DNA of 63,605 nucleotides, the filler included, from Candidatus Eiseniibacteriota bacterium (GTDB lineage: Bacteria > Orphanbacterota > Orphanbacteria > Orphanbacterales > Orphanbacteraceae), in the NCBI GenBank assembly GCA_043809585.1. It is 6 parts of 6 records of this genome, joined end to end, with 100 filler letters (N's around TTAATTAATTAA, not from the genome) between each part and the next. Parts side by side here need not be neighbours in the genome. Positions count along the whole stretch, not along the records: positions 39,551 to 61,482 come from JBDROZ010000031.1; 5 more parts are not named here. One strand, 5' to 3'. A program made the translations under genes and the position numbers. Positions within the stretch are counted from its first letter, which is position 1, and each line of letters begins with the position of its first letter. The notes under the pieces were generated by a model. That model searched no databases and was not told the DNA's origin. It worked only from the letters and a program-made list of their open reading frames with translations. This document shows, one piece after another, positions 39,551 through 61,246 of this stretch.

Positions 39551-39880
39551 AGATTGCGCGCGCCCGGAGAATGGGAGGGTTTGCTCCCGCAGCACGACGA
39601 GCGTTCCAGTCCGCCCCGATCCCCCCCCTCCTCCGATCCGCCGCCCCGCCGGTCCGATCTCCGCCGGTCACTAGGGGGTGACGAGCAGTTACCTGTTTCT
39701 GCGTGCGGCGGGACGGGGAATCGGCATCGGGAGGGGCCGGGGCATAACCGGGGAGCTCATGGAAGATCTGCGCACCGCAGATTGCGCGCGCCCGGAGAAT
39801 GGGAGGGTTATCTCCCGCCGCACGACGAGCGTTCCAGTCCGCCCCGATCCCCTCCCTCCTCCGATCCGCCGCCCCGCCGG
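39551..39880. repeat. Structured repeat family C, two diverged tandem copies
   Basis: AGATTGCGCGCGCCCGGAGAATGGGAGGGT...CTCCCGC.GCACGACGAGCGTTCCAGTCCGCCCCG at 39551 and about 39780. Confidence 0.85.
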
Positions 39881-49695: not shown

Positions 49696-49888
49696 CAGCC
49701 TTGATTTTTCATAAGATCTCGGCTCAAAGCGCTATCGCTCGCGTGCCAGCACGCCATCCGGAACCGTACTCGCCCTCACCATGGCTCACGTATTGTCAAA
49801 TACGCTCTCCATGGTTCGGGCTACGTGCGGCCCCGGCTGACGCACTCTCACGCGTTGGATCTCGAGTTTTTATGAAAGATCAAAGCTA
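49696..49888 (+). mobile_element. MITE family B, complete diverged copy (193 bp); its end is the DUF6029-like gene stop
   Basis: Imperfect TIRs GCCTTGATTTTTCATAAGATCTCG and CGAGTTTTTATGAAAGATCAAAGC-TA-G. Internal CGCTCGCG..AGCACGCCATC, GCTCAC and CTGACGCACTCTC are shared with the 29224 copy. Confidence 0.72.
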
Positions 49889-51448
49889 GAACTGGCTGAC
49901 CAGCTTCAGCTCCACGCCCTGCAATTCCGGAACCTGCTGGCAGACGCCGCCGACGCAGATGGTCCCTTCCTGGCGCTTACCCACCGTAAGGGTAAAGTGC
50001 TGGGTCTGATTGAAGAACCAGTCGATCTGGCCGTAGAGGAAGTCGTCCTTCTTCTCGCGGCAGGTCCCTTCCGACTCGTCGCAGTAGTCGGCGTGTTCCG
50101 CCACGAGTGAGAAGCCGAGGTCTTGATCCACGTGGTATTCGAGCAACCCGAAGTGGGTTCGGTTCAGCCCGGCTTGGGTCGTGCTCTCCTGGTACTGGTA
50201 CTCGCTCCGGAGGCTCCAATCGTCCCCCGAGAAATACTCGAACTCCACGATCGGGGTGTGGTTCCTAGATGAGTCCCTCCGAACGTCGGTGTAGTCGTAA
50301 ACCAGAGCGATCGCGTATCTCTCGCCAATGTACTGCCGCCACTCGGCATACCACTCCGCGAAACTATGCTCGCCGTTCTGTAATTCAGACTTGGTCCGAT
50401 TGAGAGTAATCGTCGTCCCCTCGATGGGGGGCGAGATGACGCCCTCGACCTGGTATCCCTTTTCGTCGTCCATGTCGAGCTGGTGGGCATGGCGGGTGAT
50501 GAGCGTGTATCCCGTCTCCCGGGCCACGGCGGGGGCCAGGTTATAATCGGTCTCCGTCCCCCACGGTCTGAATCGAAACCGCCTGTAATCCTTGTATTCG
50601 GCGGTGATCGCCACTCCGCTGAGGGGGAAAAGGTTGACGGCGGCGTAGTGCCCCCGGCCGCGTACGTCGTCATAACCCAACGTATCCTCTCCAACCGGCA
50701 CGCCGTTTTCGCGGATGACTCGAACGTCCTTCGATGTCAAAAACAACCGGTTGATGCGGCCGGCCTCGTAGTAGACATCGAAGAAATCGTGGGTGTAGGA
50801 GACGCGCCCCCCCAAGGCCTCGATGTGCCGGGGGCTGTGAATCGCGGCGCTTTGGTGCTGCGCTGGATCTTCCGTCGATTGCATCAGATAGCTACCGCCG
50901 GTCCGGAGCCCCCACCCGAGGTCCACACCAAGATCCGTTCCCCGAAGGACCGCGCTCCGCTCGTTCGTCTGGGCCTCCTGAATGCGCCCCGTCAGCGCCT
51001 TCATCTCGAGAGGGCCGACATTCCCCTGGAGCAGTACGCCGTCCATGTTCGTGTCGACGCCGATCGACCGCTCTTCATAGGAGCGGAAGAGAAGCCCCCG
51101 GCCGAAGATCCCGTAGAAGTTCCCCACCCGGAGGCCTCCGTAGGGGAACTCGACCGCCGCGAAATGCTGGGTGAAGCCCTGGCGGAGAGAGTCGGGTCCG
51201 CTCTGGAAGGGGGGAAGGAAGGCCTCGTACCGGAAGCCGACCAGAAAGCGCCGGAACCGTATGTCCGCCTCCAGGTAGTCCTCGAAGATCTCCTCCGGGT
51301 CGGTGGGCACCCGGTCCGGGTCACTGTTGAACGAGTACTGCATCTCGTTCAGCCCTTGAACGAAAACGGACTCTTCGGCGAACGCGGGAAGAGCCGCGAG
51401 GAGCGTGACGAGCGCGAGCGACAGCGACAGGGCGACGTGAGAACGCAC
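49886..51448 (-). CDS. DUF6029-like outer-membrane beta-barrel protein
   Basis: Signal peptide, GNFYGIFGRGLLFRSYEE...D...DG, EYKDY, C-terminal GKRQEGTICVGGVCQQVP...SQF. Confidence 0.75.
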   Translation of the reverse strand: MRSHVALSLSLALVTLLAALPAFAEESVFVQGLNEMQYSFNSDPDRVPTDPEEIFEDYLEADIRFRRFLVGFRYEAFLPPFQSGPDSLRQGFTQHFAAVEFPYGGLRVGNFYGIFGRGLLFRSYEERSIGVDTNMDGVLLQGNVGPLEMKALTGRIQEAQTNERSAVLRGTDLGVDLGWGLRTGGSYLMQSTEDPAQHQSAAIHSPRHIEALGGRVSYTHDFFDVYYEAGRINRLFLTSKDVRVIRENGVPVGEDTLGYDDVRGRGHYAAVNLFPLSGVAITAEYKDYRRFRFRPWGTETDYNLAPAVARETGYTLITRHAHQLDMDDEKGYQVEGVISPPIEGTTITLNRTKSELQNGEHSFAEWYAEWRQYIGERYAIALVYDYTDVRRDSSRNHTPIVEFEYFSGDDWSLRSEYQYQESTTQAGLNRTHFGLLEYHVDQDLGFSLVAEHADYCDESEGTCREKKDDFLYGQIDWFFNQTQHFTLTVGKRQEGTICVGGVCQQVPELQGVELKLVSQF

Positions 51449-51451
51449 GCT

Positions 51452-52000
51452 TTATCCTTCTTCGGACCCCACGGCCCTGGACGGGCCGGCGAGGATCTTG
51501 TCGATCTCCTCGATCACGATCTTCTCGTGGCCCGGCGAGTAGCCGAGCTTGGAGAAAGCGATGGTGTGATCCATGTCCACGAGGAAGAGCTGCGGAATGC
51601 TCCGGAACCTGTAGAGCCGCATCATGTCGCTGTTCGGGTCGAGCAACACCTCGAAGGAGAACTTCTTGCTCTTCACGTAAGAGCGTACTTTGGCGGTGGA
51701 GCGGGGCGAGTCGGTGTTCACCGTGAGCACCGTGACGCCCTTGTCGGCGTACTCCTTCGAGATCTCGTCGGTGCCCGGAAGGGCGTGTAGGCACGGTTTG
51801 CACCAGAGGGCCCAGAAGTCGATCAGCACGGGGCCTTCTTTCAGTACGTCGTAAAGGTTGACCGTCTTCCCCTCCATGTTCTTGAGCGTGAAGTCGGGGG
51901 CGACGCTACCCACGGCGACTCCCGGCCCCGATCCGGCGAACGCGGCGCCGGCGAGGAAAAGAGCCGCCCATACCGGGGCGATGTGAATCAGTCGCTTCAT
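51452..52000 (-). CDS. TlpA/ResA-like thiol-disulfide oxidoreductase, exported
   Basis: APDFTL, IDFWALWCKPC, IPQLFLVD; signal peptide. Confidence 0.92.
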   Translation of the reverse strand: MKRLIHIAPVWAALFLAGAAFAGSGPGVAVGSVAPDFTLKNMEGKTVNLYDVLKEGPVLIDFWALWCKPCLHALPGTDEISKEYADKGVTVLTVNTDSPRSTAKVRSYVKSKKFSFEVLLDPNSDMMRLYRFRSIPQLFLVDMDHTIAFSKLGYSPGHEKIVIEEIDKILAGPSRAVGSEEG

Positions 52001-52134
52001 CGATCGGAACTCCTTACGCCCGGCCCATCACCGGGTGGCCTTTCGTGAACGGGGCGGCTCCGGCGTCCGGAACCGCCCTCACATTCTACCGCGAGGCCGA
52101 GGGGCATGCAACACAAGGGGCTTCGAGACCGCTC

Positions 52135-53502
52135 CTACCGGAGAAGCGTCAACTTTCGTGTCTCCACGCGGTCACCGGCGGTCATCCGGGCGAAGTAGAC
52201 GCCGCTCCGCACCGGTGCCCCCGAACCGTTCGTGCCGTTCCACACGAGGGAAGTCTCGCCCGCGGCCACCGGGCCGTCGAGCAGGGTCGCGACGGACCGT
52301 CCGCTCCCGTCGAAGATCTCCACTTTCGCCCGGGCCGGCTCGGGCAAGACGAGGGAGAAGGTGGTGGTCGGGTTGAACGGGTTCGGGCGGTTCGGGCCGA
52401 GGGCGGGACGGACGGGCGCTCGGCCGTCCCCCCCCGCCACGCCGACGGTGGCGTCGAAGAAGGCGAGGGTGTTGTCGATGATCGCCTGGCGCGTGGCGAG
52501 ATTGCTGATCCCCTCGAGACCGAAGGCGAGGTAGACCGTGCGGCGGGCGCCGGCGTTCGTGTGGACCCCGGCCGCGTAGGAAGTGTTGTCGTAGGTGAAG
52601 GCGACGTTCCCCGAACCGCTCGCGGCGATGCCGTCGGGAGTCCACTGGTTCCCCGCGCCTCCGGCGATGGAGAAGGAGAGGCCGTCGCCGATCGGGTCCC
52701 GGGGGTCACCGGAGATGTCCGTGGAGCCGCTGTTGTTGACCTGGTACGACACGCCGAGATAATCGGCGAGAAAATCGCAGCCCGCGCTCGAGTAGTCGGC
52801 GCTCCCCGGATCGCACAGGTTGTACGCCGTCTGCTGCGACGAGAGGAGGAGCTTTCCGCCGTTGTCGAGGAACGCGGTCAGGAGCGTGATGTCGACGGGC
52901 TCCAGGGTCGGCACGTCCCCGCCGGTGAACCAGATCGCCCGGCCGATATTGTTCATGAACGTGCCGGAGACGGCCTCCTCCCGCCGGGGCCACCGGCCCC
53001 AATCCATGCCGCTCGGGAGGGCGTCGGTGAAGTAGGTTTGATGCGAAACCCCCCCATCGTCGTCCACCAGGAGCAGATCGATGCCGTTGGTGATCGCCGC
53101 CAGGTGCCAGCTCGCGACCTCTCCGGGGGCGCTCATCGGGTAGACCGTGAGGAGGACGTCGGCGCTCCCCTCGAGCAGGTATGTGCTGATCCACGCCTCG
53201 ACGGTGTCCACGTCTCCCGCGGCCACGGTCACCGTGTCCTCGTTGATGAAGGGGGCGAGGCAGAGGCCGTTCACGCAAATGGACGCGGTCCATTCCCAGG
53301 TGACGCCGGGCGGAAACTCCTCGGACTTGCCGATGAAGAACTCCACGGGGGTCGCCTCGTTGTTCTCGAGCAGGCAGAGAATCTTGAACAGAGTCCCCAA
53401 CGGTCCGGTCTGCACGGGGTCGCTGCAGGTGAAGTCGTAGTCCACGGCGAACGCCGCCGCGGGAACCAGGATCGCCATCGCCACGGTAATCCAACGCATC
53501 AT
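52135..53502 (-). CDS. Secreted protein with FlgD-Ig C-terminal domain and ICVNGLC motif
   Basis: Signal peptide, WTASICVNGLC, LLLVDDDGG...IWFTG domain, NRPNPFNP...SGVYFARM...KLTLLR. Confidence 0.85.
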   Translation of the reverse strand: MMRWITVAMAILVPAAAFAVDYDFTCSDPVQTGPLGTLFKILCLLENNEATPVEFFIGKSEEFPPGVTWEWTASICVNGLCLAPFINEDTVTVAAGDVDTVEAWISTYLLEGSADVLLTVYPMSAPGEVASWHLAAITNGIDLLLVDDDGGVSHQTYFTDALPSGMDWGRWPRREEAVSGTFMNNIGRAIWFTGGDVPTLEPVDITLLTAFLDNGGKLLLSSQQTAYNLCDPGSADYSSAGCDFLADYLGVSYQVNNSGSTDISGDPRDPIGDGLSFSIAGGAGNQWTPDGIAASGSGNVAFTYDNTSYAAGVHTNAGARRTVYLAFGLEGISNLATRQAIIDNTLAFFDATVGVAGGDGRAPVRPALGPNRPNPFNPTTTFSLVLPEPARAKVEIFDGSGRSVATLLDGPVAAGETSLVWNGTNGSGAPVRSGVYFARMTAGDRVETRKLTLLR

Positions 53503-53538
53503 GTTCCTTCCTGCCTTCCTCGATATGCGTCTAAACCC

Positions 53539-55008
53539 CTAGCGGGTGCTGCCCGCCTGATACACCTTTCTCGTGGAGGGGGACTCGACGAACGCGACCG
53601 CCTCCAAATTGCCCGTGTTCCACTGCCCCGACACCGCGGCGGCGAATCGGAAGGACTCGCTCTCGCCGACGAGGAGGGAGAGGTCCCGCCCCCCGGTTCC
53701 GGGGAGATACCGCCGGAGAATATCGTCGAAATGAGTCAAACCGTTCGTCGCGTCGTACTCGATGCCGGTCTCGATGATGGCCACCACGAGGACCTCGTCC
53801 CCCTCGGCCGTGTCGGCGAGCTTCTTGACAGTCCCGCTCGCCACGATCGAGTCCCCCTGGAGGGCGGTGCTCACGTCGACCGTGAAGAAGGGCACGGCGC
53901 CCATCGCGGCCTCCACCGCGGCGAGAAGCCCGTCGTACTCCTCCGGCGCCATGAATCGGACCCCGTTGATGAAGACCTGGGGAAGAGCGGCGACTCCGAA
54001 CTGGCCCCGCCGCTCGTTCATCTGCGCGGGATTATCGAGATAGAACGGGTCGGCCGGCGTGGGCCAGTTGAGATGATTGGCCACGCTCACGGCCTTGTCG
54101 AATCCGAGCCGGAAGAAGAGGAGTTCCAGGTTCTCTTCTACCTCCACGCACGGATCGCAGGCGGTGTTGGAGAAGTGCTCGATGTAGACGAGGCGGGAGG
54201 GAGGCGGAGGCGGCTCGAGAGTGAACTGAACTTCGATCAGTGCACCGGCGGCTACCACGGCGACGATCGAATCGGGCGACGAAATGTACCCGTCGAGAGC
54301 CACCCGAACGACGTACTCCCCTTCATCCACAGAGAGGGTATCCGGCGTCGTCCGTCCGGTTTCCAAACCGTCAAGAAATATGGCCGCACCGGGCGGATTC
54401 GAGAATACAGCGATCTCCCCCGTTTCCGTCGGTGTCAAGACGAAGCTCGCTTCTGCAACCCCCTCAGCCAAGACGGTTACGAGAGTTGACTGGGGCGACG
54501 ATTCAAACCCAGACAGCATGACCCGAATCTCATGATCTCCGACACAAACATCGGTGAGTGTGTCCGGAGTCACCTGTCCCGTTTCAACGCCATCGAGAAG
54601 GATGGAGGCCCCGGTAGGCTCAGAAATCACCTCAACGGAGCCTCGCGGAAGTGCGGTGAGCGTGAAGACCGCCTGCGAAAGGCTACCCTCTGCGACCGTG
54701 ATCGTGTCGACCTCGGGAATCCTATCGTGGCATTCCAGGACGACCCAAACCTCGTGGGTCCCTACGGAAACGTCGCCCAGCGTATCCGGTGTGGTGAGTC
54801 CCTTATCGACGCCATCCAAAAAAATGGCCGCGCCGGGGGGCGCGGACGTCACCTCGATCGATCCCTTCGGGTTGGCGGAGCCGTTCCCCGGCTCCGACGG
54901 ACTATTACACTTCGCGCCGCACCCACCGATCGACGGAAGCCAAATGAGCGCGACCACGAGACCCGGACACAAATACGCGACGGCCCCAAGGCCCCGTCGA
55001 GCGAACAT
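53539..55008 (-). CDS. Probable lipoprotein with three PEGA domains and an Omp28-like thioredoxin-fold domain
   Basis: Three GxIxVxSxPxGAxIxLDG...TPDTL repeats; IEHFSNTACDPC, HLNWP..DPFY, LPQVFING, LEAVAFVE. Confidence 0.85.
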   Translation of the reverse strand: MFARRGLGAVAYLCPGLVVALIWLPSIGGCGAKCNSPSEPGNGSANPKGSIEVTSAPPGAAIFLDGVDKGLTTPDTLGDVSVGTHEVWVVLECHDRIPEVDTITVAEGSLSQAVFTLTALPRGSVEVISEPTGASILLDGVETGQVTPDTLTDVCVGDHEIRVMLSGFESSPQSTLVTVLAEGVAEASFVLTPTETGEIAVFSNPPGAAIFLDGLETGRTTPDTLSVDEGEYVVRVALDGYISSPDSIVAVVAAGALIEVQFTLEPPPPPSRLVYIEHFSNTACDPCVEVEENLELLFFRLGFDKAVSVANHLNWPTPADPFYLDNPAQMNERRGQFGVAALPQVFINGVRFMAPEEYDGLLAAVEAAMGAVPFFTVDVSTALQGDSIVASGTVKKLADTAEGDEVLVVAIIETGIEYDATNGLTHFDDILRRYLPGTGGRDLSLLVGESESFRFAAAVSGQWNTGNLEAVAFVESPSTRKVYQAGSTR

Positions 55009-55167
55009 ATCGGATCTCCTTAGCAGCTGCGTGGGAGAACGAACTTGTTGATCCAGGTTAAGATCTTACCAAATCAACCCCGCGTTGTCAACCCATAATC
55101 GCCTGAAAAAATTGAAGTTAGGAGCATTCTCCCCCGAAGCGGGGGCCGGAGGGAAATCGCCCCCGGC

Positions 55168-56337
55168 TTATCTCCCAAGAGATTGTAGCAGTTCGAGATA
55201 GCGGCGGCTCTCCCCTTCCCATCGGTGGCGCTCGTAGACCCGGATCCCCTTCTCCATCACCGACCGGGTCTTTTCCGGGTGGTCGTGGACCTCCCGGATC
55301 GCCCGGGCGAGGTCTCGTTCGTCGTCCGGCTCGAAGTAGAGGAGCTCTTCATCGGAGTAGTAGTCGAGCACGCCGGGGAGGCGGGAGGCGATCACGGGGC
55401 GGCCCATGCGCAGATATTCGAAGATGCGGGTCGGCAGATTCCTCTCGGTGAAGACGTTTCTCCGGTTCGGCACGAGCCCGAGATCGGCGGCTTCGATGTG
55501 GGACGGGATTTCGGCGAGGGGGCGGTGGCCGAGGAACCGAACCCGGTCGTCGATCCCGAGTTCCCGGGCGAGACGGGCGAACTCCTCCGCGCCGTCGCCG
55601 TCGCCGATCGCGTCCAGCAGGGCGCCGGGGATCTCGTCCTTCAGGAGCGCCAGGGCGCGGAGGGCCACGTCGAGTCCGCTCCGGTGGACGAGGGTCCCGT
55701 GATAGATCAGCCGGAACGAATCGTCCTCCCGGAAGCGCGGCGGCCGTCTCTCGGGAAAGATCTTCTCGTCCGGCGAGTTCAGGACCAGGTGGATCTTCGA
55801 CCCTTCGATGCCCCGTTCGATCAGAGTGCGGCGGAACGCCTCGGAGGTGGTGATCGCGGCGTCGGCCCGGGCGATGGAGAACGACTCGACCCGGGTGAGG
55901 GCGCGGATCAGCTTCGATTCGTCGGAGAGGCCGTACTTGGCGATGTACACCTCGGGGACGAGGTCGTGGAGGTCGAGCACGACCCGCGCGCCCCGCAGGC
56001 GATGGAAGAGGCCGCAGAGGACGAGGAGGTCCGGCATGTTGTGGGCCTGGAAAACGTCGTAGCGGCGGCGCATCGCGAGGGCGGTCGCGAGAATGAAGGC
56101 GAGCAGGAGGAAGGACCCGTATTCGAAGAGATACCGGGCGGCCCCCCCCCGCTTCCGGCGGATCGGGAGCCGCAAATAGCGGACGCCGCCGACCGTCTCC
56201 TCCCGGGCCTCCCCTTCGTTCCGGAGGCAGATGACGTCGACCCGGGCGCCCGCGGCGGCGAGCGCCTCCGCCTCGCGACGGACCCGAGGATCGTCGGGGC
56301 AGTAGGAGTGGACCACCATGCAGGCCGAGGAGATCAT
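55168..56337 (-). CDS. Glycosyltransferase family 4
   Basis: DPRVRREAEAL, HNMPD, DLHDLVPE, PTRIFEYLRMGRPVIAS. Confidence 0.92.
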   Translation of the reverse strand: MISSACMVVHSYCPDDPRVRREAEALAAAGARVDVICLRNEGEAREETVGGVRYLRLPIRRKRGGAARYLFEYGSFLLLAFILATALAMRRRYDVFQAHNMPDLLVLCGLFHRLRGARVVLDLHDLVPEVYIAKYGLSDESKLIRALTRVESFSIARADAAITTSEAFRRTLIERGIEGSKIHLVLNSPDEKIFPERRPPRFREDDSFRLIYHGTLVHRSGLDVALRALALLKDEIPGALLDAIGDGDGAEEFARLARELGIDDRVRFLGHRPLAEIPSHIEAADLGLVPNRRNVFTERNLPTRIFEYLRMGRPVIASRLPGVLDYYSDEELLYFEPDDERDLARAIREVHDHPEKTRSVMEKGIRVYERHRWEGESRRYLELLQSLGR

Positions 56338-56338
56338 C

Positions 56339-58063
56339 TCATGAGGCCGATTTCGGCTTCCGGATCAGGTAATCCGCCACGGCCAGGTTTTCGAGGCCCG
56401 AGCGCTCGAGCACGTCGATCGCGTCGGCCGCGCTCGACACGATGGGGAAGCCGTGAAGATTGAACGACGTATTCAGGACCACGGCCCGGCCTGTCCGCTC
56501 CGCGAAGCGGGAGATGACCCGGTGGAAGCCGGGGTTTTGCCCCTCGTGGACGAACTGGGGCCGCGCGCTCCGGTCGTAGGGCTGCACCCCCGCCGGGAAC
56601 TCGACGACTTTCTCCGTGGAGTCGAAGGTCATGATCATGTAGGGGGCGTCCATCTTCTTCGGGTTGACGACGTACTCGTCGCTCCGCTCTGCGAGCATGG
56701 CCGGCGCGAAGGGCATCCAGAAGTCACGGTTCTTGATCATGTCGTTGATGATGCGGACCACGTCGCCGCTCGTCGGGTCGGCAAGGATCGAGCGGTTGCC
56801 GAGGGCCCGGGCGCCGAACTCCATCGGGCCGCAGGCGCGGGCCACCACCTCGCCGTCGGCGAGCATGTCCCCCACCTTCGTGTCGAGATCGGCCGGCTTC
56901 TCCACTTCGTACCCCTTCGACTCGAGAGTGGAGCGCATCGCCTCCACGTCCTTGTTCTTCGTCTCCGGGCCCCAGTAAACCGAGCCGAGGGCCGGGATCT
57001 CGAAGGGCGACCCCTTCTTCGTCATCTCCTCTTCGTAAACACGGAAGGCGGCGCCGATGCAGTTCATTTCGTCTCCACAAGAGGGGAAGACGAAGAGGCC
57101 GTCCACCTCGGGCATCTCGTAGATGCGCTTGTTCGCCTTCACGTTCATGAAGACGCCCCCGCCGAGGGCGAGGTGATGGACTCCGGTCTCGCGCACGGCG
57201 TTCGCCGCCCACGTGGCGAGGTGCTCCTCCGTCCATTGCTGCAGGCCGGCGGCGATCCAGTCGAAACGCTGCCGCGCGACCAGGTTCTTGAAGAACTCGT
57301 AGCTGTAGTACGTGTGGGGGATGCCCGGCTCCCTCTCCCACGTCAGGCCGTTGCCGACGAAGTGAAACAGGTTCTTGAACTTGCCGTAGCTGATCTTGGC
57401 GCCCGACTCGGGCGCGTAGGGGGCCATTCCCATCAGCTTGTACTCGTGCTCGTTCGGCACCATGCCCATGACGAAGGTGATCTTCGCGTAGATGGAGCCG
57501 AGAGAGTGGGAGTCGTCGATCGTGGCGATCGGGTCGCCGAGGCGGCCCTTCTCGCCGATCCGCACGCTCGCGCAGAGATCGTCCCCCATGCCGTCGCAGG
57601 TGAGGACGAGGACCTCGCGGTCTTTCCATGGCGCGCCGTGGAAGGCGGCGGCGGCGTGGGCGGTGTGATGGTCGATGAAGAGCGCGCGCTCCGCCGGGAG
57701 CCCCGCCTTCCGGATGTCGTCGAGGCGGTCCTCGCGGCGGCTCCGGCGATGGATGGCGGTGGCCGGGGTCTTCTTCATGATCTGCCGGAAGGCGTAGGAG
57801 AGGCTCTGAGAGGCGGCGTACTCCTCCAGCATCTCTTCCCGGGTTTTCGCGTAGGGGACGTGCTTCGAGTGCATCGCCACGAAGTCGATCTCGCCCGGAT
57901 CCGTGCCGGTCGACTCGAGGACCCACCGGATCGCGCCGGTCGGGAACGAGAACTGGTTCTTCGAGCGGGTGAGCCGCTCCTCCTGAAGGGCCGCGACGAC
58001 GACGCCGTCCTCGACGAGGCAAGCCGCCGCGTTGTGCCCGTCGTGAATTCCGAGAATCTTCAT
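56339..58063 (-). CDS. Carbamoyltransferase (NodU/CmcH family)
   Basis: MKILGI.DGHNAA, EERLTR.K, HHTAHAA, DGMGD, EYKLMGMAPY, GGVFMNVKAN, EFGARALGNRSILADP, LNTSFNLHG. Confidence 0.94.
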   Translation of the reverse strand: MKILGIHDGHNAAACLVEDGVVVAALQEERLTRSKNQFSFPTGAIRWVLESTGTDPGEIDFVAMHSKHVPYAKTREEMLEEYAASQSLSYAFRQIMKKTPATAIHRRSRREDRLDDIRKAGLPAERALFIDHHTAHAAAAFHGAPWKDREVLVLTCDGMGDDLCASVRIGEKGRLGDPIATIDDSHSLGSIYAKITFVMGMVPNEHEYKLMGMAPYAPESGAKISYGKFKNLFHFVGNGLTWEREPGIPHTYYSYEFFKNLVARQRFDWIAAGLQQWTEEHLATWAANAVRETGVHHLALGGGVFMNVKANKRIYEMPEVDGLFVFPSCGDEMNCIGAAFRVYEEEMTKKGSPFEIPALGSVYWGPETKNKDVEAMRSTLESKGYEVEKPADLDTKVGDMLADGEVVARACGPMEFGARALGNRSILADPTSGDVVRIINDMIKNRDFWMPFAPAMLAERSDEYVVNPKKMDAPYMIMTFDSTEKVVEFPAGVQPYDRSARPQFVHEGQNPGFHRVISRFAERTGRAVVLNTSFNLHGFPIVSSAADAIDVLERSGLENLAVADYLIRKPKSAS

Positions 58064-58195
58064 CGTCCTCTCCGCCTGGGTCCACCGTTTCCGTAGGGAC
58101 CGACCATGGTACCCCACCGCCGGGCGGGGCACAATCCCGCTACCGAAGTATCGGCGGGGCATGGAATTAGCTTAATGAAGGGTGGTGGGCGGGTC

Positions 58196-58351
58196 GGCGG
58201 TCCGGCTTCGGGAGGGATGGGGGCATAACCGGGGAGTTGTTGCGGTCTTTCGCGACGCCTCCTCTACGAGCCCGGAGAATGGGAGGGCTCTCTCCCGCCG
58301 TGCGACGAGCGTCCAAGTCTGCCCCTTCATCCCTCCCGAAGCCGGACCGCC
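58196..58351. repeat. Structured repeat family C, complete single copy
   Basis: 24-bp perfect terminal inverted repeat GGCGGTCCGGCTTCGGGAGGGATG, plus GGGGCA/TGCCCC, enclosing two internal stems. Confidence 0.9.
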
Positions 58352-58532
58352 GCCCCGCCTACGAGCGATGACACGGCGTCGAGGGAGATGCCCCTTCCCT
58401 CGAGCGCGGCACGAACCGAACGCGCGACCGGGCTTGTCCGCCGAAGCCGCAGGCGAAGGCGGATGGGCGGCCGCCTCTCCCTCCCTCCCTTCGCGGCTGT
58501 CCCAGGAATCATGAATGCAGGGGGGGATTGGC

Positions 58533-58793: not shown

Positions 58794-60134
58794 ATGCAGT
58801 TCAAGGAAGTGAGAATCCCCGAGGGCGACCTTATTCAGTACAAGAGCGGCAAGCTGGTCATCGGCGACCGCCCCGTGGTGGGCTATCTCCGGGGCGACGG
58901 CATCGGCCTAGACATCGGCCCGGTCATGAAAAAGGTGGTCGACGCCGCCGTGGAGAAGGCGTACGGCGGGAAGCGGGCCGTCGCCTGGTGCCCCCTCTAC
59001 GCAGGCCTCGAAGGCCTTACCCGCTACGGCAGCGAGTTCCCCGACGAGACCGTGGAGGCGATCAAGTTCCTCCGCGTCGCCATCAAGGGCCCCTTCACGA
59101 CTCCCATCGGAGAGGAGACCCATGTCTGCCTGCACTGCGCCCACCAGCAGTACCACCCGGGCGCCTGCGACAAGTGCAAGAAGGACGACGGCGTCTGCCC
59201 GCGCTTCCGCTCGATCAACGTCCGCTTCCGCCAGCGCCTCGATCTCTTCGCCTGCGTCCGCCCGATCCGCTACTTCGAGGGCGTGCCGGCGCCGAACAAA
59301 TACGCCGACAAGGTCGACTTCGTCATCTTCCGGGAGAACACGGAGGACGTGTACGCCGGCTACGACTACGAGAACGGCAGCGAGATGGCGAAGGCGATCA
59401 TCGCACTCATCAAGGAGAAGGACGGCCGGGAGATTCGCTCCGACTCGGGGATCGGCGTGAAGCCGATCTCGGTCTACGGCACCCAGAGGATCGTGCGGAA
59501 GGCCCTGCAGTGGGCCGTGGCCCAGAAACTCCCGTCGATGACGCTCGTCCACAAGGGCAACATCATGAAGTTCACCGAAGGGTCCTTCGCCAAGTGGGGC
59601 TATGAGCTGGCGGAGAAGGAGTTCGGCGGCGTCACGATCAGCGAGAAGAGGCTATGGGACGAGTTCGGCGGCAAGATGCCCCAGGGGAAGATCCTCGTGA
59701 AGGACCGGATCGCCGATTCCATCTTCCAGCAGATCCAGACGCGCCCCGACGAGTACAGCGTCCTCACCCTGCCGAACCTGAACGGCGACTACCTGTCGGA
59801 CGCGGCCATCGCCCTCGTCGGCGGCCTCGGCCTCGGACCGGGCGCCAACATGTCCGACGAGGTGGCCCTCTTCGAGGCGACCCACGGCACGGCGCCGAAG
59901 TACACGGGGCTGGACAAGGTGAACCCGGGATCGCTGATCCTCTCCGCCGTGATGATGCTGAACCACATGGGGTGGAACGAAGCGGCGGACCGGATCCTCG
60001 GCGGGATGGAGAAGGCGATCAAGGACGCGGAGGTCACCTACGACCTGGCCCGCCTCATGCAGCGCGAGGGACGGAAGGGCGTGAACGAGGTCTCCTGCAG
60101 CGGGTTCGGCGAGGCGATCGTCGCACGGATGTAG
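58794..60134 (+). CDS. icd: NADP-dependent isocitrate dehydrogenase (E. coli type) with Cys-rich insertion
   Basis: GDGIGLDI, IKGPFTTP, FRENTEDVYAG, LVHKGNIMKFTEG, NLNGDYLSD, FEATHGTAPKY, VTYDLAR. Confidence 0.96.
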   Translation: MQFKEVRIPEGDLIQYKSGKLVIGDRPVVGYLRGDGIGLDIGPVMKKVVDAAVEKAYGGKRAVAWCPLYAGLEGLTRYGSEFPDETVEAIKFLRVAIKGPFTTPIGEETHVCLHCAHQQYHPGACDKCKKDDGVCPRFRSINVRFRQRLDLFACVRPIRYFEGVPAPNKYADKVDFVIFRENTEDVYAGYDYENGSEMAKAIIALIKEKDGREIRSDSGIGVKPISVYGTQRIVRKALQWAVAQKLPSMTLVHKGNIMKFTEGSFAKWGYELAEKEFGGVTISEKRLWDEFGGKMPQGKILVKDRIADSIFQQIQTRPDEYSVLTLPNLNGDYLSDAAIALVGGLGLGPGANMSDEVALFEATHGTAPKYTGLDKVNPGSLILSAVMMLNHMGWNEAADRILGGMEKAIKDAEVTYDLARLMQREGRKGVNEVSCSGFGEAIVARM

Positions 60135-60175
60135 CGGCCCGCGGGCGGCCGTCACCGAAGCCGGGATGTCATGAG

Positions 60176-61246
60176 ATGAGCGAAGTCTATTACGCTCCGG
60201 GAAAGCGAAGCGACTCGAACCGGGAGACGACCCGGAAGGTGGACGTTCTCTGGGAGGCGGCCCGCCTGGGCGACTGCTTCGGGCGTCTCGATCTGACGGC
60301 GATCAAGCTCCACGTCGGAGAGCCGGGGAAGACCACCTTCGTAAGGCCCGTGGTGGCCCGGGCCCTCGTCGAGCGTCTGCGGATCGTCGGCGCCCGCCCG
60401 TTCCTCACCGACACGTGCGTCCTCTACAAGAGCCCCCGGAACAACGGCGTCGGTCACGCGCGGGTCGCCTCGAACCACGGCTTCTCCATCGAGCAGACCG
60501 GCGCCCCTTTCCTTCCGGCGGACGGGCTCTCGGGAGAGGAAGAGGTGGAGATGGAGGCCGGCGGGAAGCACTTCAAGACCGTTTCCATCGCCGCCGGCAT
60601 CGCCCGGGCGCGAAGCATGCTCGTCCTCTCCCACGCCACGGGCCATCTCGCCACCGGATTCGGCGGCGCCCTCAAGAACGTCGGCATGGGGTGCGCCACG
60701 AGGAAAGCGAAACTCCGGATGCACTTCGGCCGGCAGCCGGACATTTCACCGGACCTCTGCGACGGGTGCGGCGAATGCGCCGCCGCGTGCCCGGAAGAGG
60801 CCATCGCGATCGACGGCACGGCGGCGATCGATATGGACCGGTGCATCGGGTGCGGGGCGTGCGTCGCGCGCTGCGTCCGGGACGCCGTCGCCTTCGACTG
60901 GACCGTGTCGGGGATCGAGCTTCAGGAGAGGATCGTGGAGCACGCCGCGGCTGTCATCCGGGCGCGCCCGAAGAAGATCGTCTACGTCACCAGTGCGACA
61001 TCCATCACCAAAGATTGCGACTGCCTGGGTTCGCCCCAGGAACCGGTCTGCGAGGACATCGGCATCCTCGCGTCGTGGGACCCGGTGGCGATCGACGACG
61101 CGATCCTCCGCATGATCGAGGAACGATCGGGCAAGACCCTCGAATCCATGACGTACCCCCTCCACGACGCCCGAGCCCAGATACGTTATGCCGTCAAGAT
61201 GGGTCTCGGCCGCCCCGCCTCCAAGATCATCAACGTCGGCGGGTAA
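60176..61246 (+). CDS. DUF362-family protein with two 4Fe-4S ferredoxin motifs
   Basis: AIKLHVGEPG, PFLTDT, GFGGALKNVGMG, CDGCGECAAACP, CIGCGACVARC, DCDC, DPVAID. Confidence 0.88.
   Translation: MSEVYYAPGKRSDSNRETTRKVDVLWEAARLGDCFGRLDLTAIKLHVGEPGKTTFVRPVVARALVERLRIVGARPFLTDTCVLYKSPRNNGVGHARVASNHGFSIEQTGAPFLPADGLSGEEEVEMEAGGKHFKTVSIAAGIARARSMLVLSHATGHLATGFGGALKNVGMGCATRKAKLRMHFGRQPDISPDLCDGCGECAAACPEEAIAIDGTAAIDMDRCIGCGACVARCVRDAVAFDWTVSGIELQERIVEHAAAVIRARPKKIVYVTSATSITKDCDCLGSPQEPVCEDIGILASWDPVAIDDAILRMIEERSGKTLESMTYPLHDARAQIRYAVKMGLGRPASKIINVGG

Follow-up and report, generated by a model that had tools for sequence, protein, structure and literature searches.

Why would an enzyme of central metabolism carry a cysteine-rich module at the very loop on which its best-known relative is controlled? 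Isocitrate dehydrogenase (IDH) is one of the most thoroughly studied enzymes, and its Ser113 loop is the classic example of control through phosphorylation at an active site. The question is raised by the icd gene of a 63,605-nucleotide stretch of DNA (the window) from the assembly GCA_043809585.1 of a Candidatus Eiseniibacteriota bacterium; compared with the solved type-I IDHs, its product has 31 residues with four invariant cysteines (Cys4) in place of the two-glycine hinge before the Ser113 equivalent. We lean, on balance, towards a structural answer. The gene and the serine are located as follows:

58794–60134, plus strand: icd, encoding a type-I, homodimeric-type nicotinamide adenine dinucleotide phosphate (NADP) isocitrate dehydrogenase of 446 amino acids (P0001), assigned by PF00180 and NF005425
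59211–59213, plus strand: S140, the equivalent of E. coli Ser113 (isocitrate-binding, and the target of AceK in E. coli), by alignment to 1ai2

By profile and alignment, the window protein is a type-I NADP IDH whose catalytic and NADP apparatus is intact. It matched PF00180 (Iso_dh) at E 2.7e-74, with 250.9 bits against a cut-off of 27, and reached 517.8 bits, against a cut-off of 490, with NF005425, the NCBIfam equivalog for NADP-dependent IDH; the TIGR00183 score, 552.4, was slightly below the cut-off of 567.3 because the insert splits the match in two. The solved enzymes of E. coli (Icd: 1ai2, 3icd and 1cw7), A. fulgidus (2iv0) and B. pseudomallei (3dms) are 53–56% identical to the window IDH and superpose with Z 55–56 and a root-mean-square deviation (rmsd) of 1.5–1.9 Å over about 400 residues; for the model on 1cw7, the values were Z 56.4 and 1.5 Å, with 400 residues superposed. 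Since residues 111–416 of 1ai2 align to residues 138–446 of the window IDH, S140 is the equivalent of Ser113. Mapped from the ranges of the same alignment, the catalytic and substrate-binding set is entirely kept (S140, N142, R146, R156, R180, Y187, K254, D308, D332 and D336, for which we take the E. coli counterparts to be S113, N115, R119, R129, R153, Y160, K230, D283, D307 and D311), and so are the NADP-specificity residues K369, Y370, V376, Y416 and R420 (presumably K344, Y345, V351, Y391 and R395 in E. coli). A first-pass annotation, made from the DNA alone, had named the serine of the RS(L/I)N motif as Ser113 and described the rest of the enzyme, NADP motifs included, as intact; both statements hold, the former by the alignment to 1ai2 and the latter by profile scores, superposition and the residue check. 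IDH is well established as a homodimer. In the 97.5%-complete genome, icd encodes the sole true IDH found, the next match being just 39% identical.

The gene was also found in sequencing runs. A 365-nt DNA contig of run X1, which may be the window's own source sample, spanned the insert with 0 differences over 59000–59364. Contigs from the RNA libraries X2, X22 and X23 cover parts of icd, one of 234 nt being identical over 59830–60063, with DNA carry-over possible; none of the contigs of these three libraries lies over the insert.

The 20 best solved IDH chains all aligned to the window IDH as residues 1–106 and 138–446, leaving residues 107–137 unmatched, and insert-less relatives have G-G alone at this point. 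The insert reads E-E-T-H-V-C-L-H-C-A-H-Q-Q-Y-H-P-G-A-C-D-K-C-K-K-D-D-G-V-C-P-R, is flanked by TTPIG and FRSIN, and ends three residues ahead of S140. An insertion of 31 residues in place of two had been noticed in the first-pass annotation, and this is exactly what residues 107–137 (nucleotides 59112–59204) represent. Its count of five cysteines and four histidines was also correct, but the spacer of ten residues that it gave between the two CxxC pairs was not, as C112, C115, C125 and C128 make up a CxxC-x9-CxxC motif. The parts of the insert are:

59112–59204, plus strand: the 31-residue Cys4 insert (residues 107–137), which replaces the two-glycine hinge; alignment and model
59127–59138, plus strand: knuckle 1, C112-L-H-C115, with both cysteines invariant (140/140 and 91/91, see below)
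59142–59150, plus strand: H117-Q118-Q119, directly after knuckle 1, with Q119 invariant in both length variants
59166–59177, plus strand: knuckle 2, C125-D-K-C128 (the next residue is G in most relatives and K here), with both cysteines invariant (140/140 and 91/91)
59196–59198, plus strand: the fifth cysteine, C135, variable among relatives by residue counts over 140 inserts

We refer to the 31-residue insert form as type A and to a 35-residue form as type B. A word-indexed search with residues 85–160 as the query returned 758 proteins at E ≤ 0.001 among 846 candidates, and the 31-residue insert is present in all 120 matches listed from it. From a second search, with the most divergent member, P0121 (64% identical), as the query, which gave 565 proteins from 651 candidates, 120 listed matches were used. 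Among the matches listed from both searches there are at least 184 type A proteins with 140 distinct insert strings, and insert positions C6, C9, C19 and C22 are invariant in all 140; the Cys4 pattern, therefore, is not due to chance. By contrast, only 63 of the distinct inserts have the fifth cysteine, at insert position 29, the others having T (67), A (8) or V (2) there, and histidine occupies the four His positions in 130, 101, 134 and 115 of the 140, respectively. These five residues are not conserved and are therefore no part of a general ligand site. When phmmer was run exhaustively against 1.84 billion representatives (50%-identity clusters), 10,117 proteins scored E ≤ 0.001; a CxxC...CxxC pair occurs anywhere in the protein in just 3 of the best 150 matches (P0121, P0131 and P0214), which makes the type A enzymes a single tight cluster.

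Type B was met in a scan of genome contigs (best 80 of 599 stretches), in which L015, labelled Cloacimonadota, has 35 residues inserted at the same point with the motif CxxC-x14-CxxC; all 120 matches listed from a search with L015 as the query carry this form. The four cysteines are invariant in 91 of 91 distinct type B inserts, whereas all four His positions are lost in this form. Types A and B have in common the motif aromatic-V-C-L-x-C-[AS]-x-[QE]-Q ... C-x-K-C-G ... [VI]-T-P-R-F-R-S, in which position 118 is occupied by Q in the former and by E in the latter, and the two inserts are therefore homologous. Type B enzymes, about 57% identical to the window enzyme, also share L72, L75 and T371 with it. 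On the other hand, in type B the insert is five residues longer between the knuckles and one residue shorter beyond them, its net charge is positive (mean +1.35, against −4 to 0, mean −1.8, for type A), and the enzyme lacks a short segment that is present in all type A enzymes, at which each of the 20 type B rows and 47 of the 51 insert-less ones are gapped:

60066–60074, plus strand: E425-G426-R427 (within REGRK), an extra segment specific to the 31-residue type A clade, from alignment columns

The residues of the insert other than the cysteines are under purifying selection; in the 27 rows of type A, their mean pairwise identity is 0.67 and that of the body of the enzyme 0.76, and in the 20 rows of type B the two values are 0.72 and 0.77.

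Mapped across IDH homologs, the insert-bearing enzymes form two clades, with 31 and 35 inserted residues, under many phylum labels. By these searches, the Cys4 insert is common to hundreds of uncultured bacteria carrying some 14 phylum-level labels, which are those of metagenome-assembled genomes (MAGs) as deposited, unchecked. The MAG source labels of type A are Gemmatimonadota, Eisenbacteria, Acidobacteriota/Holophagae, Aegiribacteria, Hydrogenedentota, Latescibacterota, Myxococcota and Planctomycetota, and those of type B are Cloacimonetes, Bacteroidetes, Armatimonadota, KSB1, Marinimicrobia and Elusimicrobia. The clusters of 10 proteins contained MAG or metagenome members only, with no isolate name among them.

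To place the two forms, an alignment of 137 rows was assembled (47 insert-bearing and 90 insert-less), and trees were built on 98 rows, after thinning out every second insert-less named locus and removing the insert columns. With FastTree, type A is one clade (support 100) on a long stem of 0.37 and type B one clade (support 99), while the backbone between them was unresolved. A single origin was evaluated by IQ-TREE in quick mode (LG+G4, a short search with no mixture model) on 52 hand-picked rows, 12 of type A, 12 of type B and 28 insert-less. The tree joining A and B had a log-likelihood 31.8 above that of the free-search tree (approximately unbiased test, p = 0.85); by these alignments, a single origin of the insert-bearing enzymes is not rejected, nor is it proven.

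A full type A enzyme is present in 6 of 31 sampled genomes, namely G000, G001, G004, G007, G008 and the unrelated G024 (80% identity). That of G004 is identical to P0300, which bears the NCBI label Candidatus Eisenbacteria, and the window genome thus probably belongs to this phylum. In the phylum of the window organism, the insert was observed in 5 of 10 species genomes and 3 of 7 genera, the insert forms being 82–85% identical to that of the window; the other five genomes have an insert-less IDH of 58–62% identity, and in none of the 10 were both forms seen. This either-or pattern holds among genera even inside one family. In the phylum of G024, the insert is found in 8 of 10 genomes, including 4 of 4 high-quality ones. 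High identity across phylum labels, together with a patchy pattern within one family, suggests gene replacement by transfer, that is, a putative xenologous replacement of a core gene of the tricarboxylic acid (TCA) cycle between the insert and the insert-less form. Moreover, as the insert form is the sole IDH of its genome and follows an either-or pattern in the phylum, it works as a housekeeping enzyme.

We then asked which fold the insert may adopt. AlphaFold2, with a 76-row alignment, modelled the window IDH with a mean predicted local distance difference test score (pLDDT) of 95.5 and a predicted template modelling score of 0.93. The values for successive blocks over residues 101–140 were 90, 94, 95 and 91, and the insert is therein a confidently predicted (pLDDT 90–95) three-stranded mini-sheet, with strands 110–112, 118–119 and 134–136 flanking the knuckles. 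The same three strands were obtained for an isolated 39-mer (7-row alignment), with a mean pLDDT of 78 and 87–88 in the core. Compared with 48,161 representatives of the PDB, the isolated insert gave weak matches, the best with Z 3.7 and none at 5 or more, which are almost all Cys4 zinc-ribbon or rubredoxin-like: eL40, the C-terminal domain of LapB, rubrerythrin, Nob1, MCM and Rpb12. The top Foldseek match was the LapB C-terminal domain (4zlh; E 0.41, probability 0.98, TMq 0.68, rmsd 1.4 Å over 33), and the zinc LID of adenylate kinase was also returned (4qbi and 1zin, E 0.9–2.1). A profile of the insert searched against PDB sequences by hmmsearch matched eL37 at E 0.009. No Pfam family matched the insert alone, even at E up to 10, and the ESM Atlas look-alikes of residues 100–142 (score ≤ 0.77) were IDH fragments only, giving no lead to a donor domain. 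The modelled fold is consistent with the zinc-ribbon class, statistically not established.

Like the zinc-ribbon and rubredoxin-like modules (LapB 4zlh, eL40, eL37, Nob1, MCM and Rpb12), the modelled insert has two CxxC knuckles on short β-hairpins. Unlike them, it is an internal loop of a metabolic enzyme and not a terminal or free-standing domain, and the match is weak, with no family membership. An analogy, and an analogy only, may be offered by adenylate kinase (1zin and 4qbi), an unrelated enzyme with a weak structural match, in which, as in the window IDH, Cys4 knuckles sit in the active-site lid or loop of a core enzyme. The Gram-positive adenylate kinases have a small structural Zn(Cys)4 knuckle pair in the mobile lid of the active site, which some lineages carry and others do not, and in the lineages that lack the metal the lid is about as large, whereas insert-less IDHs have just two glycines.

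Since the four cysteines are invariant, the fold is confidently predicted and the look-alikes are zinc ribbons, there is good, albeit indirect, support for a putative metal-binding module next to the substrate serine. The first-pass annotation had placed a metal-binding or redox module there; the predicted metal module survives, without the fifth cysteine and the histidines, which are not conserved. With moderate confidence, we read the insert as a structural Zn(Cys)4 cap, standing in for the glycine hinge and packed on helix 71–78, by which the mouth of the cleft near S140 and the NADP loop is stiffened or shaped. The two CxxC knuckles on the mini-sheet would form a small zinc-ribbon-like Zn(Cys)4 module, which would be a permanent structural part of a housekeeping NADP-IDH. 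The flexible glycine hinge of the 'phosphorylation loop' would give way to a rigid cap, stapled by the metal, at the entrance to the active-site cleft; packing on helix 71–78 of the large domain, near the NADP-binding loop, this cap would shape the rigidity of the loop and the closure of, and access to, the cleft, rather than serve as a kinase target. That the metal is zinc, that the module docks on this helix and that catalysis is affected at all, we infer.

Body positions that track the insert were sought in the 98-row alignment, as columns in which both insert clades keep a residue that few insert-less enzymes (n = 51) have. Five positions were found, which are listed below together with two elements of the gene:

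Position 72: L in the insert clades; E in 44 of 51 insert-less enzymes
Position 75: L in the insert clades; T in 13, A in 11 and F in 7 of 51 insert-less enzymes
Position 192: F in the insert clades; W in 32 of 51 insert-less enzymes
Position 301: L in the insert clades; V in 29 of 51 insert-less enzymes
Position 371: T in the insert clades; A in 44 of 51 insert-less enzymes
59004–59027, plus strand: helix 71–78, which includes L72 and L75 and on which the insert is proposed to dock; alignment columns, helix in the model
59898–59906, plus strand: K369-Y370-T371, the NADP-specificity pair and the Thr that tracks the insert; alignment columns

In addition, the usual W81, present in 35 of 51 insert-less enzymes, is found in neither insert clade (E in type A, V or I in type B). 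L72 and L75, three residues apart on helix 71–78, together with the loss of this nearby Trp, would fit a hydrophobic docking surface for the module, and T371 adjoins the K369-Y370 pair. Compared with known type-I IDHs, the changes proper to the clade of the window IDH are, thus, L72, L75, the lost W81, T371 and the extra EGR at 425–427.

Several points weigh against a structural cap. The bound metal is only predicted, and may be Fe instead of Zn; the structural matches of the isolated insert are all weak (best Z 3.7, Foldseek E 0.4 or worse), and it has no Pfam match at E up to 10. As a single origin is not rejected, L72, L75 and T371 may reflect one ancestral event and not independent co-evolution. 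The strong conservation of Q119, G133 and R137, which are not ligands, would also fit a regulatory or docking role, and a purely structural role leaves unexplained why the module was acquired and retained at this very loop.

A regulatory role at this loop recalls the AceK-controlled IDH of E. coli, in which Ser113 is on the same loop, the Ser being conserved in the window IDH. However, AceK (PF06315) was not found in the 97.5%-complete genome, in a search whose control detected it in E. coli, and neither was isocitrate lyase (PF00463), which the control detected in 8 of 14 reference genomes. The idea of the first-pass annotation that the insert could block access of the kinase is therefore inapplicable in this genome. 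Unlike the E. coli system, the window genome is without AceK and isocitrate lyase, and any regulation would be metal- or thiol-based. One such mechanism would be a redox- or zinc-responsive switch, in which an oxidant or zinc limitation frees the metal, the loop by S140 unfolds or refolds, and IDH activity changes together with the supply of NADPH and 2-oxoglutarate. The position is suggestive, as the module stands three residues ahead of the substrate-binding Ser, where E. coli uses phosphorylation, and there is precedent, Zn(Cys)4 sites being known redox switches in Hsp33 and RsrA. AceK, as said, was not found, and the organism encodes a heme-copper oxidase and hence meets oxygen. On the other side, no computed result favours reversibility, the extra fifth cysteine is not conserved, and there is no glyoxylate shunt in the genome to switch towards. 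Furthermore, the same invariant site occurs in the 35-residue variant under the labels Cloacimonetes, Marinimicrobia, KSB1 and Elusimicrobia, groups that we take to be usually regarded as anaerobes. Towards the switch on TCA flux that the first-pass annotation had suggested, the computed results are neutral, and we consider a reversible switch unlikely. The wider claim, by which Cys4 would be a built-in metal/thiol switch at the AceK loop and so an independent and widespread means of controlling the TCA cycle and the NADPH supply after translation, across a dozen phyla that are mostly uncultured, is, if anything, marginally less credible.

The zinc ribbon might instead be an interaction surface at the cleft, on which another protein docks, for instance a regulator or an enzyme of an adjoining pathway. 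Zinc ribbons are common mediators of interactions, and the surface residues of the insert are strongly constrained, but the gene context does not offer a candidate: of 8 insert-bearing loci, just 3, which belong to a single genus of the same family, have the DUF362/4Fe-4S gene in synteny with icd, and the carbamoyltransferase neighbour is kept in none, and there is therefore no conserved partner gene. Besides, the sign of the net charge differs between the two variants (−1.8 in type A, +1.35 in type B) and the type of enzyme that oxidises 2-oxoglutarate does not track the insert, which leaves partner docking doubtful indeed. A rubredoxin-like Fe(Cys)4 centre with an electron-transfer function, to which the matches with the rubredoxin domain of rubrerythrin and the rubredoxin-like domain of LapB would point, is very improbable, as the spacer of 9 or 14 residues is far shorter than that between the knuckles of rubredoxins, the NADP determinants are intact and no flavin or other redox-partner site is evident. 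Finally, a moonlighting, nucleic-acid-binding zinc ribbon, brought to mind by the ribosomal eL40 and eL37 among the best look-alikes, can be all but set aside, since the type A insert is acidic to neutral and the look-alikes (Z ≤ 3.7) have only a generic fold in common with it.

As for the genomic background, the window is a composite in which just positions 39551–61482 are one contig (G000:C31, 21,932 bases), the remainder being N or other contigs. The product of the gene just downstream of icd (60167–61246, plus strand) is a DUF362 protein into which a 4Fe-4S ferredoxin domain with two clusters is embedded. Upstream, a minus-strand cluster of cell-envelope type (49886–58162) comprises DUF6029, FlgD-Ig-like, PEGA/Omp28, GT4 glycosyltransferase and carbamoyltransferase genes. 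The divergent intergenic region upstream of icd contains a 178-nt element (58185–58362) with 35-nt terminal inverted arms, 94% complementary, which folds very stably (−132 kcal/mol, z = −8.2) and has about 45 near-full-length copies in the genome, of 79–95% identity, on many contigs. By its sequence, it looks like a dispersed repeat of the miniature inverted-repeat transposable element or repetitive extragenic palindrome type; in Rfam, this region had sub-threshold matches to microRNA precursors only. Regarding the next step of the TCA cycle, the N-terminal domain of 2-oxoglutarate dehydrogenase (PF16078) was undetected in the window genome and present in 1 of 31 genomes, none of the window's family. 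The alpha subunit of 2-oxoacid:acceptor oxidoreductase (TIGR03710) was above its cut-off in the window genome (G000), as in the insert-bearing G001, G004, G007, G008 and G024 and in the insert-less G002, G005, G006 and G009. A link between the insert and the type of 2-oxoglutarate-oxidising enzyme was thus rejected, as PF16078 and TIGR03710 do not separate insert-bearing from insert-less genomes.

In the literature covered, which leaves subscription journals outside, we found no description of such an IDH insert, and a sequence search of the PDB found no solved structure covering it. Given the distribution of the insert, the TCA cycle of a large proportion of environmental bacteria would depend on an uncharacterised form of IDH, the sole one of many of them, carrying a strictly conserved Cys4 mini-domain at the Ser113 loop. 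If the module is structural, as we favour, it would be a clean natural example of a glycine hinge swapped for a zinc staple, from which both the study of how the cleft closes and the engineering of enzymes could benefit; a regulatory module would be a new control point on the flux of carbon and NADPH.

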